64,000 nucleotides of DNA from an uncultured Nitrososphaerota archaeon (GTDB taxonomy: Archaea > Thermoproteota > Nitrososphaeria > Nitrososphaerales > Nitrosopumilaceae): NCBI GenBank assembly GCA_963701075.1, contig OY969559.1, positions 1,664,001 to 1,728,000 on the forward strand, in the 5' to 3' direction. Each line of letters opens with the position of its first letter. Positions within the stretch are counted from its first letter, which is position 1. This document shows positions 52,419 through 60,146 of this stretch, piece by piece. The notes below the pieces were generated by a model. It had not been told where the DNA came from. It saw only the letters and a list, made by a program, of their open reading frames with translations, and made no database searches. Made by a program: the position numbers and the translations under genes.

Positions 52419-53228
52419 ATGTCAGACGATACAATTAGACTAGTTCAGTCACTTATTGATTCTAAAAAAGGAGATGCAGGTAGATTACAACAAATTTTGG
52501 ATACATTACAGCAAGGCAAGTCTCTTGACATTTCTGATCAAAATTACTTGCAAGAAATTTCCGCAGAACCACCAAAACAGCCAGATGAAGGCCCTGCAAT
52601 GGTTTCCGGCATTCCCGAAGATGAAACTTCGGACAAGCAAGAGTCTTTTGATTCTCTAGAATCTGCTCCCAAAGAGGAAGAGACCAGCGAGGCCCTCGAT
52701 GATGATGCCGGAATACGAGATGCCAGAAATGCACCTTCAAGAAAAAAGATTGCAGTGGTGGCAGCGGTGATTGTTGCGATAGTTGTGGCATATGTAGGAC
52801 TTGATTCCTATGCAGTAAGTACGCTCCAGTTCCGCCCTGATGCAGAAAATCAATATCAAATGTCGCCCACGCAGATCCACATACAGGCAGATGTGTGCAA
52901 TCCTTCCTTCTTTCCCGCAAGTTTTAACAAGTATGAGATAACCGCATTTTACAATTCAAGTGTCATAGAAACGGCAGAAATGGGCGGAGCCACATTATCT
53001 TCCAAGACCATGTCTACTGTCGATGGCGTCTTTTCATTAAATGCAGATGCCATACTCAAACTAAAACAAGAGAATGCCACATTTGATCCAACATTGGCAA
53101 AGATTACCACTAGTGTTGATGCCCCAATATTTGGAATAATTCCATTTTCTGTGGTAAAGCAATATTCTGCGCAGCAATTCCATGATGTACTCAAAAATGG
53201 CCCTCCTGGTTCTTTTAGTTGCGACTAG
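52419..53228 (+). CDS. membrane protein: GDxxRL N-terminal domain, TM, LEA_2-like domain
   Basis: KGDAGRLQQIL; TM; VCNPSFFPASF. Confidence 0.7.
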   Translation: MSDDTIRLVQSLIDSKKGDAGRLQQILDTLQQGKSLDISDQNYLQEISAEPPKQPDEGPAMVSGIPEDETSDKQESFDSLESAPKEEETSEALDDDAGIRDARNAPSRKKIAVVAAVIVAIVVAYVGLDSYAVSTLQFRPDAENQYQMSPTQIHIQADVCNPSFFPASFNKYEITAFYNSSVIETAEMGGATLSSKTMSTVDGVFSLNADAILKLKQENATFDPTLAKITTSVDAPIFGIIPFSVVKQYSAQQFHDVLKNGPPGSFSCD

Positions 53229-56896: not shown

Positions 56897-57379
56897 CTAG
56901 TTCTTTCTTCGTTTGATTGAGAGGGTTTTCTGTACTTCGTTAATACTGCTCAGAAACTTTTGCTTTGCCTCATACTCGTCTGTTACCTTGATCAAAATCT
57001 CAGTAGGAGAAAACATGACGTCTTTTACAAGTATGGGCAAGCTCAATCCCAAAAGCTCGCTTAGTATGTCAAATATGTTTCTAAACGTGGAACCGCCTTT
57101 GTACTTGAAAAGAGTGTTACCATCTGCAATCTTTGGATTTGGTTCCAGTGGAATCACAAGTTCTTGCGATGTGAATTCGGTGATAAATGTAGAAATGTCT
57201 TCGTTTATCTTAGTTGTTAGAGTTTCCTTTTCTCCCATGAGCTTTTCCTTTGCAGATTCCAACTCTTTTGTGGAATCGTTGTATTGCTCACCTATCATCT
57301 TTGCAAAATTTGATTCAGTTGATATTTTGAGTGGAATTTCATGAATTCTAAAATTTATTGCAGATAGACTCGGTTTCAA
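56897..57379 (-). CDS. hypothetical protein with coiled coil, downstream of tubulin
   Basis: 160 aa; heptad segment KELESAKEKLMGEKETLTTKI. Confidence 0.7.
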   Translation of the reverse strand: MKPSLSAINFRIHEIPLKISTESNFAKMIGEQYNDSTKELESAKEKLMGEKETLTTKINEDISTFITEFTSQELVIPLEPNPKIADGNTLFKYKGGSTFRNIFDILSELLGLSLPILVKDVMFSPTEILIKVTDEYEAKQKFLSSINEVQKTLSIKRRKN

Positions 57380-57451
57380 CGTCAGTTAGTCGCTGTCTAT
57401 TTTTCTTAATTTGGGTTGCAACTTGTTCCAAGAAATTAAAGTCTGCCATAC

Positions 57452-58847
57452 CTAAGCACTAAACTGATGAACGACGTCCATTAGGCTTTGTTTGAACTCT
57501 TCATTTGTTAGTCCCCATTTGCCATATTCTTCCTTGTAACTATCCCAGGAGGCTTCTGCCTCGCTTGCAATTTCCAAAATCTTGGGCCCAATTGCCTTTG
57601 TGTTTACAAGTATTGTGACATTAGCTTGCTCTGTCTCCAGTATAGGAATCTTGACAAATATCATTCTAGAGTCTTCAATATGGAACCTGTCCTTTATCAT
57701 GTTCTTTAGGATCTCTCTTTCTTTTACATCAAATTCTCCTTTGATTTTGACTAGTGCGACACAAGAATCGCGTTGTCCTCCCTTATCTCTGATATCATTT
57801 TCGTCGATATCAAACAATACTGCATCATCTTTTTTGTGAATGTGATCTGTAATTGCATCCATGGTATTTCCCTTGCCTGCAGACATCAAGTCATTTCCCC
57901 ATTGCTTTTCCTCTGGGACAACTGGAATCACCCATGGTACTGCAAATCTTGGCATCTTTGTTGCAAGCCATGTCCTATAGTTTGACATGTCCCACTCGGT
58001 CTCTCTTGCAAATGATGCAATAAACATGGACATTGCGTTTGCGGCAATCAGGTTCATGCCTTTGTAATCCTTCCAGCCTATTTCATGTTCTTTTGGAAGA
58101 TCATCAATGATTGACTGTATTTTTTCAATTTTTTTCTCATTTTTGTGAGCAACCTCCCTTAGTCTCTTGTTTGAGAACAGGATCGCGCAATCACTGTACT
58201 TTATCTGGTATTCAAGATTCATCACTATGTTGATTGCAGCTGCCTCAAAAATCACCGGGTCCCATCCAAATTCTGGCAAAAGTCCAAACGATGCTATTGT
58301 TGCATGTTCCTTGGAATCCTTCTTTATGTATTCCATAAATGCACTGGCAAATGAACTCCCAGTTCCTCCGCCCATTGCAAAAGGTATTGTAAAGCCCCTG
58401 ACAGGTTCAGGCGATAGCCCTGACAGTTGTTTTTGCAAATCATACTTTTGAGTTACATCAACAGTAAACCTGCTTCTTCCTTCAGCCCAGTTTCTTGCAG
58501 CACCACCTGCTCCATGGATTACATGTTTATCGCGAAGTGCAAACAGATCAGGATATGATTGCAGTATCAGATTCAGCTGCCCTTGGGTCCAAATCAACCA
58601 ACAAGGCCCTTGGAATCAGCGGAATATCATGTCCTCCATAAGAAGTTGGAAATCGTAAAATTGTGCTGCCGTATCTTTTCAAAACACGAGACTCATCTTT
58701 TTCTCCTTTTAATGTAGGCTTGAGAGGATCAGCCCCTACATCAATCAATAATCTTCTGTATGCCTCTGCACCCAAACCTATTCCGCAATGACCAAAACAT
58801 GTCATCAATACTGGCGCTGGTGGTAGCGGGGCATTAAGATTTGACAA
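57452..58847 (-). CDS. eukaryote-like tubulin (artubulin-type); 1-nt frameshift at about 58574
   Basis: FGHCGIGLG (T1), PRALLVDLDP, GAGGAARNWAEG (T3), AMGGGTGS (T4), FSN (T6); about 464 aa when joined. Confidence 0.85.
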
Positions 58848-59027
58848 TACTAATCATCATACTACAGAGAACTGCTCACTTTAATCGGATAGTGTAAGAT
58901 TGTAAAGTCGATACTTGATTGTTATAGACATGCAAATAAGGTCAGTACGCTTGAATGCATCACACGTATGACAAATAATTCTTTTTTAAATTTAAAAATT
59001 AAGAAAAAATCATTCTTTTGAAAAAAT

Positions 59028-59330
59028 TTAGAATCCAGTTATGGCTTTTTTCAGGTCTCTGAATTCATCTATTGTTATTTTTCCTTCTGCAAGCCTTATC
59101 CTGAGAAGTTCTATCGGGGTATCGGCTTTTACCTCTTCTGGGACTTTTGACTTGATTTCGGTATTATTTTCCTGCGATTCCCCTGAAATTAGACTTTGAA
59201 TGTACTTGTAATCAGACATGTAGACGGGGTTTTTCTGTTTTATTGAATCCAATATTTCACGCAGTCTCTTTGTGTCTCCCTTGCCAGAGGCAAGAAGAGT
59301 TTTCACGTCTTTTAGCAAGTCTTCGGACAT
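59028..59330 (-). CDS. GDxxRL domain plus SHOCT domain protein
   Basis: KGDTKRLREIL; LRIRLAEGKITIDEF. Confidence 0.75.
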   Translation of the reverse strand: MSEDLLKDVKTLLASGKGDTKRLREILDSIKQKNPVYMSDYKYIQSLISGESQENNTEIKSKVPEEVKADTPIELLRIRLAEGKITIDEFRDLKKAITGF

Positions 59331-59333
59331 GTA

Positions 59334-60146
59334 TTACTTCACAACTGCTTTGAATCGTAGATCATCTTTTAGTCTATTAAATACCGAGTCCTTGACTGCC
59401 CATCCCTTTATCGTCTTTCCATAGTACAGTATTGCCTGCGCAAGCAATTCAAGTGCCTCACGGTCCTCTCCAAGTTCGGCCTTGCTTCTTGCCTTAGAAT
59501 AAATTACTGTGCCATTTTTTGGGTTGTCTTTTAGGACTTTATCAAACAGTACAATCGCATCTTGGTGTTTGCCAAGCTCTGCAAGACTTGTGGCCTTGTA
59601 AAACAAGGCTTCAAAATTTTCTGGTTCTTTTTCTATCACCTTGTCAAAACACAATAATGCGTCGCTGTGTTTCTTCTGTTTTCCAAGTACAAGACCCTTA
59701 AAATAAGTGGCAGAAACATTTTCAGGTTCAATAGACAAAGACTTGTTAAAACATAGAAGGGCTTCATCGTACTTTCCAACTCCAATTTCTGCAATGCCCT
59801 TGTTGTATAGAACTGGCACGTAAGTTGGATCCACTTTCAATGCCTTTTCGTATAGGTTTATCGCTCGTTCAAATTGCTGTTGTTCAGCATATGAATTTCC
59901 CAGATTGTTCAAAGCCAATACATGGTTTGGGTCTTTCTCAAGTATTTTTTCAAAACATGCAACTGCATCTTTGCTTTTCTTTAACTGAATAAGAGACATT
60001 CCTTTGTTGTATAATGCATCCACATTTTTCGGATCGCCCTTTAGAACCTTGTCAAAAAAAGATATGGCATTCTTATGCTTGCCTAGTTTGGCATAGCTCT
60101 TGCCTTCTGATACCATTCCAATAGACTCACTTTGATTTTGTGTCAA
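59334..60146 (-). CDS. tetratricopeptide repeat protein
   Basis: About 7 TPR repeats (ALYNKG..A..CF.K.L..DP). Confidence 0.9.
   Translation of the reverse strand: MTQNQSESIGMVSEGKSYAKLGKHKNAISFFDKVLKGDPKNVDALYNKGMSLIQLKKSKDAVACFEKILEKDPNHVLALNNLGNSYAEQQQFERAINLYEKALKVDPTYVPVLYNKGIAEIGVGKYDEALLCFNKSLSIEPENVSATYFKGLVLGKQKKHSDALLCFDKVIEKEPENFEALFYKATSLAELGKHQDAIVLFDKVLKDNPKNGTVIYSKARSKAELGEDREALELLAQAILYYGKTIKGWAVKDSVFNRLKDDLRFKAVVK

Follow-up and report, generated by a model that had tools for sequence, protein, structure and literature searches.

Artubulins are among the few archaeal proteins outside Asgard that have been argued to stand close to eukaryotic tubulin, and the text of the literature examined reports no function, partner, structure or polymer for them. 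They were defined from Nitrosoarchaeum through an arrangement in which the gene lies next to Snf7 (Yutin & Koonin 2012, PMC3349469). What accompanies an artubulin gene that stands without Snf7, and is such a gene whole when its reading frame is broken in the assembly? Both questions are raised by a locus on a 64,000-nucleotide (nt) stretch of DNA from an uncultured archaeon of the Nitrosopumilaceae (assembly GCA_963701075.1, contig OY969559.1, positions 1,664,001 to 1,728,000), which was analysed at its full length and is called the window below. The locus probably carries two intact genes that form one module in an ammonia oxidiser of the Nitrosotalea type: artubulin and, after it, the gene for a 183-residue protein, its candidate working partner.

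The artubulin gene and its family

Two overlapping open reading frames (ORFs) in different frames on the minus strand, at 58548-58847 (99 residues) and 57452-58597 (381 residues), make up the artubulin gene. The first-pass annotation, made from the letters of the window, had joined them into an artubulin-type protein of about 464 residues with tubulin-specific motifs. The joined product has exactly 464 residues once one extra base is discounted, and every quoted motif (GHCG, PRALLVDLDP, AARNWAEG, GGGTGS and WDMSNY) is present in the translations of the two ORFs taken together. The Pfam family Tubulin (PF00091) matches the 381-residue piece with an expect value (E) of 7.9e-11 (43 bits against a cut-off of 33), and the full-length 464-residue homologue at locus L015 with 2.2e-17 (64.4 bits).

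A search of a 5.8-billion-protein collection returns 167 relatives at E<=0.001. Among the best 120 of these most have 447-478 residues, and identity is 73-90% for those that are near full length, as far down as P0095. NCBI labels the homologues 'cell division protein FtsZ', and JGI 'tubulin gamma'. The family is present in records of Nitrosotalea, Nitrosotenuis, Nitrosopumilus and Nitrosarchaeum, and in a divergent 'Nitrososphaerales' clade whose artubulin is about 53% identical to that of the window. The mean column identity in an alignment of 33 artubulins (A2) is 77%. The closest relatives of the window locus are Nitrosotalea records, and the runs that carry its sequence are soil and peat metagenomes (21 runs). 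Because the Nitrosarchaeum loci of this same family show the defining arrangement, with Snf7/CdvB directly upstream, homology identifies the window gene as an artubulin, a new member of a known family and an orthologue of the Nitrosarchaeum Snf7-adjacent proteins, as the first reading had it. These Snf7-artubulin loci are recovered at about 80% identity, and the family is now far wider than the two genomes of 2012 (PMC3349469).

Loci of the thaumarchaeal type, with artubulin and partner, also occur on contigs filed under bacterial names. They are L029 / L101 (BMAH01000059.1), filed as 'Gammaproteobacteria bacterium BBSC-SA02', with about 80% identity to the query proteins, and L170 (DAIDAO010000036.1), filed as 'bacterium isolate clean1925', with about 69%. 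These contigs are probably mis-binned or mislabelled archaeal sequence.

The downstream gene accompanies artubulin

Downstream of artubulin, the ORF at 56897-57379 covers only the 3' portion of a longer gene with its ATG at 57449; the near-identical locus L015 carries this gene whole, with 183 residues. The coiled-coil neighbour had been named as a candidate accessory factor from the sequence of the window. Its linkage to artubulin proves general, whereas the boundaries then given to it are wrong, being cut by an artefact at 57368.

Profile hidden Markov models of artubulin and of the partner were run on the stop-to-stop frames of all fetched loci, among which are 155 unique loci with artubulin. 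A locus was taken as informative when it held the artubulin 3' end and at least 560 nt downstream, and a partner was counted when it started on the same strand between -60 and +300 nt; 13 loci were excluded, 12 that end too soon and L119. A partner homologue lies directly downstream of artubulin in all 142 informative loci. A cruder count finds it in 95 of 97, and the two misses (L010 and L014) have tblastn matches at the expected place. The gap between the two genes has its mode at 2 nt and ranges from -26 to +16. The divergent clade keeps the arrangement in 31/31 loci with room for it, where the partners are about 25-33% identical to that of the window. Of 401 genomes sampled evenly across the phylum, 16 have artubulin (E<=1e-10); a strong partner match is found in exactly these 16, always with the two genes adjacent. 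Pairwise identities of artubulin and partner over 24 loci are correlated (r = 0.91, means 0.82 and 0.61), which could be explained by shared ancestry alone.

Artubulin and its partner very probably form an operon, and the universal link of artubulin, as read from these loci, is to the downstream gene, the Snf7 link being particular to one clade. The published picture is corrected in this respect, as the Snf7 link stands behind the cell-division hypothesis. The text of the papers examined on artubulins and archaeal tubulins, figures and supplements aside (these may show the gene), makes no mention of a conserved downstream gene. PMC9871819 describes the neighbours of archaeal tubulin-like genes as often coiled-coil proteins, and the Nitrosoarchaeum artubulin as having Snf7 upstream. 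An invariant, coupled partner gives a rationale for co-expression, and may be the reason should artubulin by itself fail to assemble.

The partner family and its predicted fold

The partner matches no Pfam or NCBIfam family, nor is a DNA-binding domain detectable in it with these two collections. An exhaustive search of 1.84 billion representatives with the partner profile finds only 53 proteins at E<=0.001. Beyond the artubulin-linked forms, homologues occur in Nitrosocaldus (193-196 residues), Nitrososphaera (about 143 residues, without the middle of the hairpin described below), Bathyarchaeota BA1 (229 residues) and Thermoprotei (308 residues). Relatives of about 300 residues give weak winged-helix-like C-terminal matches (E 8e-4 to 8e-3, below the cut-offs). 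For the single Bathyarchaeota homologue (P0154), no locus was found among the genome contigs. One sampled genome, G353, carries a stand-alone homologue after a radical-SAM gene (L150:1435-2085), and another, G389, a 137-residue short form (L151:1486-1899) amid ribosomal-protein, RNase P-subunit-like and Nep1-like genes, these neighbours being named by eye.

The AlphaFold model of the partner, with a predicted local distance difference test (pLDDT) score of 63, has a helical hairpin (residues 4-52 and 60-92) followed by a small mixed domain, modelled with low confidence, and by a helix at the end; the C-terminus is rich in lysine and arginine. A wide structural search with this model returns only generic helical hairpins at Z of about 9-10.7, below the meaningful level for helical models, and the ESM Atlas holds no usable match. 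No ESCRT-III or prefoldin identity is read from it, the matches to SMC coiled coils, to prefoldin and to CHMP4B/Shrub hairpins all lying below that level. A prediction of the artubulin-partner complex from alignments A2 and A1 scores 0.00, which gives no verdict either way.

Could the 183-residue gene simply be packed closely into the same operon and serve a separate function, for instance one related to nucleic acids or ribosomes, its product making no contact with artubulin? The two sampled genomes G353 and G389, which have a partner homologue and no artubulin, weigh against a dedicated partner. Because homologues occur without an adjacent tubulin, the family is, judged by its distribution, not tubulin-specific by origin and older than its link with artubulin. 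The short form of the Nitrososphaera-type genome, beside ribosomal-protein and Nep1-like genes, and the weak winged-helix-like matches of some longer relatives point the same way. Against such a mere neighbour stand the unbroken linkage, which persists although artubulin identity between clades has fallen to about 53% and all other neighbours differ, the spacing of 2 nt, and the agreement in presence and absence over the 401 genomes. We consider a neighbour without contact unlikely. For the 183-residue protein as working partner, the balance tips slightly towards a physical interaction with artubulin.

Artubulin compared with tubulins, CetZ, FtsZ and TubZ

The profile built from the 33 artubulins in A2 was searched against all solved chains. 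It gives 171 PDB matches at E<=10, the best 60 of which are all tubulins, led by Heimdall AtubB (3.6e-22), Loki AtubA (3.9e-18) and gamma-tubulins (about 1e-14), and followed by alpha, beta and OdinTubulin. The N-terminal GTPase (guanosine triphosphate hydrolase) domain aligns with the eukaryotic and Asgard tubulins (alpha, beta and gamma; AtubA/B; OdinTubulin) at E 1e-12 to 4e-22. The matches span positions 10 to 277 only, and mostly end at about 235.

In a model of modest confidence, the artubulin fold likewise comes closest to these tubulins; a tubulin fold throughout, with the two C-terminal helices, is a tentative reading of it. Foldseek finds only tubulins and OdinTubulin among the matches listed (E about 1e-11, template-modelling score about 0.47). 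VIA-align, a search independent of Foldseek, ranks seven tubulins first among 48,161 representative chains: beta-tubulin 4ffb_B (Z 16.6, 289 residues aligned), OdinTubulin (15.7), BtubA (15.4), AtubB2 (15.2), gamma-tubulin (15.0), alpha/beta-tubulin (14.4) and gamma-TuSC (14.0). These seven alignments take in 281-305 residues and all reach the last residue, 464, of a model whose mean pLDDT is 56.8. After a gap of about 4 units follow CetZ2 (10.2), FtsZ (8.7), CetZ (8.7) and TubZ (8.1, 6.1 and 6.0), which belong to the same superfamily and score clearly lower; only tubulin alignments run to residue 464.

Like Nitrosoarchaeum (PMC3349469), the window's genome also keeps a regular thaumarchaeal FtsZ-like gene. 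Its protein (L001, 317 residues), which serves as an internal control, matches FtsZ entries only, 50 of 50, the weakest being a CetZ2 entry filed as FtsZ, and shares with artubulin one stretch of 75 residues (E 3e-4). This gene lies at L001:1279-2232, about 20 kb past the end of the window. In a BLASTP alignment its LAGKSG stands opposite MGGGTG of artubulin, a departure from the usual glycine-rich signature.

In sum, profile and modelled fold place artubulin closer to the tubulins than to CetZ, FtsZ or TubZ, so that the earlier assignment to tubulin rather than CetZ/FtsZ holds as far as similarity can say. Several points weigh against this placement. The C-terminal half (residues 235-464) matches no solved chain at E<=10, and a full-length homologue has no Tubulin_C or FtsZ_C match in Pfam at E<=1, in agreement with a reviewer's criticism printed alongside the 2012 paper (PMC3349469). 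The AlphaFold model, built from A2, is below pLDDT 50 in its N-terminal domain and mostly at 60-90 in its C-terminal half. Artubulins group with TubZ in all trees of PMC4202323, and sit on a very long branch with no resolved position in PMC13394414 and its preprint. They might then be a fast-evolving offshoot of TubZ, CetZ or FtsZ rather than kin of eukaryotic tubulin, their tubulin-like motifs reflecting convergence or a long-branch artefact; the missing C-terminal sequence similarity and the two sets of trees speak for this. The exclusively tubulin composition of the best 60 profile matches, the gap in fold scores and the reach of tubulin alignments alone to residue 464 speak against it. Artubulins are sister to tubulins in the tree of PMC3349469, and PMC9871819 argues their tubulin affinity from shared indels. 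We judge such an offshoot improbable, and take artubulin to be tubulin-like in what follows.

Artubulin also differs from the eukaryotic and Asgard tubulins in having no acidic C-terminal tail, besides lacking sequence similarity in the C-terminal half. It is not one of a pair, as A/B tubulins are: 15 other genomes have one artubulin each, and the two matches in G000 are pieces of one gene.

Conserved nucleotide-binding and T7 residues

All 33 sequences of A2 share the T1 glycines (G-H-x-G-x-G-x-G), the T3 block GGAARNWAEG (114-123), GGTG (160-163), the residues P191, F193, G194, D196 and P197, and N226. Within the block SF-x-RETEWD-x-SNYRTWL (278-294), 15 of the 17 positions do not vary among the same sequences, the exceptions being 280 and 287. 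This block is predicted by the AlphaFold model to form a loop and a short helix after the long core helix, which is the place of T7/H8. In all filaments of the tubulin/FtsZ superfamily, the T7/H8 element contacts the nucleotide of the next subunit. In an alignment made by eye, D286 falls at the conserved T7 aspartate. In the same by-eye alignment the invariant N289 falls opposite what we take to be the hydrolysis-activating residues E254 of alpha-tubulin, the catalytic glutamate, and D212 of FtsZ. If this by-eye reading is right, hydrolysis in artubulin homopolymers may be slow or need help from a partner.

A conserved non-coding block

The spacer of 180 nt upstream of artubulin contains a conserved non-coding block (Table 1). 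From GTCTATAACAATCAAG at its beginning it runs to a TTAAAG-like box some 30 nt short of the artubulin start codon, and the word ACAATC occurs in it twice, at a distance of 21 nt. The block is common to Nitrosotalea, a second Nitrosopumilaceae clade and Nitrosotenuis, which have different upstream genes, and is partly kept in Nitrosarchaeum; it is found at the same place in 59 locus records (duplicates counted). There is one copy in the window and one in the genome. Its presence at loci that differ in their upstream genes, and its single occurrence in the genome, make it a likely promoter or operator belonging to the artubulin-partner pair itself. A scan for bacterial-type promoters and terminators, with models not suited to archaea, did not rise above shuffled sequences, and a tRNA scan of the window found none.

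Table 1. Positions in the window of the artubulin locus, its neighbours and the two extra bases (X1, X3, X4 and X5 are public sequencing runs)
Feature	Position	Strand	Remarks
Artubulin gene	57452..58847	-	464 residues without the spurious base; TTG start; tubulin/FtsZ GTPase domain with invariant T1, T3, T4, T5 and T7/H8
Conserved partner gene, 183 residues	56897..57449	-	ATG 2 nt past the artubulin stop; N-terminal helical hairpin (predicted), small C-terminal domain, basic tail
Conserved non-coding block	58879..58932	-	some 30 to 85 nt ahead of the artubulin start codon; starts GTCTATAACAATCAAG, ends in a TTAAAG-like box
SHOCT-like protein, 100 residues	59028..59330	-	weak C-terminal SHOCT; co-oriented, 180 nt upstream of artubulin; clade-limited candidate accessory
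Tetratricopeptide repeat (TPR) protein, 270 residues	59334..60146	-	3 nt upstream of the SHOCT-like gene; TPR_1 1.2e-46
Spurious extra base splitting the artubulin frame	58574..58574	-	omitted in covering contigs of X1, X3 and X4; homologues continuous
Second spurious extra base, removing the first 27 codons of the partner gene	57368..57368	-	omitted in X1, X3, X4 and X5

Upstream genes vary between clades

The genes upstream of artubulin were surveyed in 84 unique loci with at least 900 nt of upstream sequence. A SHOCT-like gene together with a TPR gene is found in 37, all of Nitrosotalea type; 7 have the SHOCT-like gene without TPR (in one of them on the opposite strand), Snf7/CdvB is present in 13, and 27 have none of these. 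The cultured Ca. N. devanaterra (L064) shares the layout of the window. Nitrosotenuis and Nitrosopumilus loci have nothing co-oriented upstream of artubulin.

The gene immediately preceding artubulin in Nitrosarchaeum loci matches Snf7 (6.2e-9) and NCBIfam CdvB1/B2 (5.6e-42), and adjacency to Snf7 is particular to loci of this type (13/84). There is no Snf7 near the artubulin of the window, as had been noted at first sight. Three weak Snf7 matches occur in the genome, at 0.30, 0.33 and 1.31 Mb; they are about 0.4 to 1.4 Mb from the window, which begins at 1.66 Mb. Such a context is not new: the artubulin of Ca. Nitrosotenuis uzonensis was reported in 2013 as not adjacent to Snf7/CdvB (PMC3835317). 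Strain N4 of that paper differs from the window in genus and flanks, and the text of the paper leaves the downstream gene unmentioned.

Might the upstream TPR and SHOCT-like genes encode real accessory factors of artubulin, as the first-pass annotation had suggested? The TPR protein BtubC accompanies the bacterial tubulins BtubA/B, so a precedent exists in Prosthecobacter, where a TPR gene likewise lies near a prokaryotic tubulin and BtubA itself is among the fold matches given above. A figure legend of the 2012 paper (PMC3349469) shows a TPR gene beside bacterial tubulins. At the window locus, the TPR and SHOCT-like genes are co-oriented with artubulin and only 3 nt from each other. The case for the SHOCT-like gene is the better one: a second clade, in which the genes further upstream differ, has it too. 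It stands upstream in 44/84 loci from at least two clades, and this part of the suggestion keeps its standing. The TPR gene does not extend beyond the genus, where NhaP and PepN accompany it in the same 33-45 loci. Compared with solved structures, the TPR protein resembles generic and designed TPRs, OGT and CDC27, and BtubC-type proteins are not among the best 60 matches listed. Because NhaP and PepN are equally syntenic and the TPR protein is generic and consensus-like, the TPR linkage looks like genus-level synteny. Here the window differs from BtubABC, which has two tubulin genes to its one. Further points against an accessory role are the 180-nt spacer with its promoter-like block between the SHOCT-like gene and artubulin, and the 27 loci that have neither gene. 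The N-terminal module of the SHOCT-like protein also recurs in many unrelated proteins. Taken together, real accessory factors upstream are quite unlikely, and the downstream protein stays the preferred partner.

The SHOCT match itself is weak in the window protein (0.0059) and better in its L020 orthologue (1.6e-6). The N-terminal module of about 60-70 residues has 5 matches in the window's genome, and matches in 47 of 121 family genomes, a tally that takes in G449 and G461, both flagged as unpublished, on which no result here depends. It occurs at 52419-52637 (+) and at four other places in the window's genome, and heads several larger proteins (190-600 residues) in this genome and related ones. 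Sequence comparison marks this module as an undescribed small domain family of Nitrosopumilaceae.

A possible mode of action

The working that we propose starts from a filament, whose formation by artubulin is reasonably probable. Artubulin would assemble head-to-tail into GTP-dependent protofilaments, the T7 loop of one subunit resting on the nucleotide of the next. Artubulin and partner would be co-transcribed from their own conserved promoter region, and their translation is probably coupled. The partner would be a stoichiometric filament-binding factor, for example a nucleator, a stabiliser, or an adaptor to membrane or DNA; it might bind polymer or monomer, and either control assembly or tether it to another structure. 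The clade-variable upstream gene, CdvB or SHOCT-like, would couple the core pair to different machinery. By analogy, a filament with a small adaptor recalls the logic of TubZ-TubR, with the difference that the partner has no detectable DNA-binding domain.

A more ambitious version, which we put forward tentatively and rather doubt, is that the pair is an obligate two-component cytoskeleton. The partner would descend from an older family of archaeal proteins and have been enlisted as a new type of tubulin-binding assembly controller, one that perhaps offsets the T7 asparagine. Clade-specific upstream genes (ESCRT-III/CdvB or SHOCT-like) would then plug the filament into division or other machinery.

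Two single-base insertions in the assembly

The break in the artubulin frame had been put down to a probable sequencing frameshift at about 58574, and the extra base is at exactly that place. It is a G on the minus strand that parts the codon of the last A in DLDPRAANLILQSYPDLF from the codon of N; in full-length homologues DLDPRAANLILQSYPDLF runs uninterrupted across the junction. We compared the window over 57300-59000 with the Logan contigs of four public runs (X1, X3, X4 and X5). Run X1 is possibly the source sample and so not independent, and run X5 comes from a different study. The base is absent from the single covering contig of each of the three runs that cover the place (X1, X3 and X4), X5 being without cover there. 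The base at 57368 is absent in 4/4 runs, and the partner match in the genome consists of two frame pieces that meet at this position. Apart from these two omissions, the run contigs are identical to the window. The loose ends of two of them hold letters that we take to be Nextera adapter, and the run contigs are therefore probably short-read data. The frameshift at 58574 is thus a sequencing or assembly error, and the gene is whole in short-read data.

Among the 155 unique loci, which come from species-representative genomes, artubulin lies in one frame in 154. The exception is L119:6001-7389, from the complete genome record of the cultured strain Ca. Nitrosotenuis chungbukensis MY2; its three frame pieces correspond to residues 1-74, 66-456 and 454-464 of the L024 protein, with two frame breaks. 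The extra base is present in the deposited assembly, a single 1.916-Mb contig, and L119 is likewise in pieces, but a true pseudogene or programmed +1 frameshifting at 58574 is very unlikely because otherwise identical run contigs omit the base and nearly all loci keep one frame, a second insertion nearby being contradicted as well. The 381-residue homologue P0005 was considered as a second broken case and rejected: its ORF opens at an internal start on a contig of 5.9 kb and continues without a break across the junction.

The insertion at 57368, only 1.2 kb away and contradicted by four runs, indicates a general indel error of the assembly. For annotation, this means that an intact and usually mislabelled gene lies in an assembly that carries gene-breaking single-base insertions; other split or shortened ORFs in the window and the genome may also be assembly artefacts.

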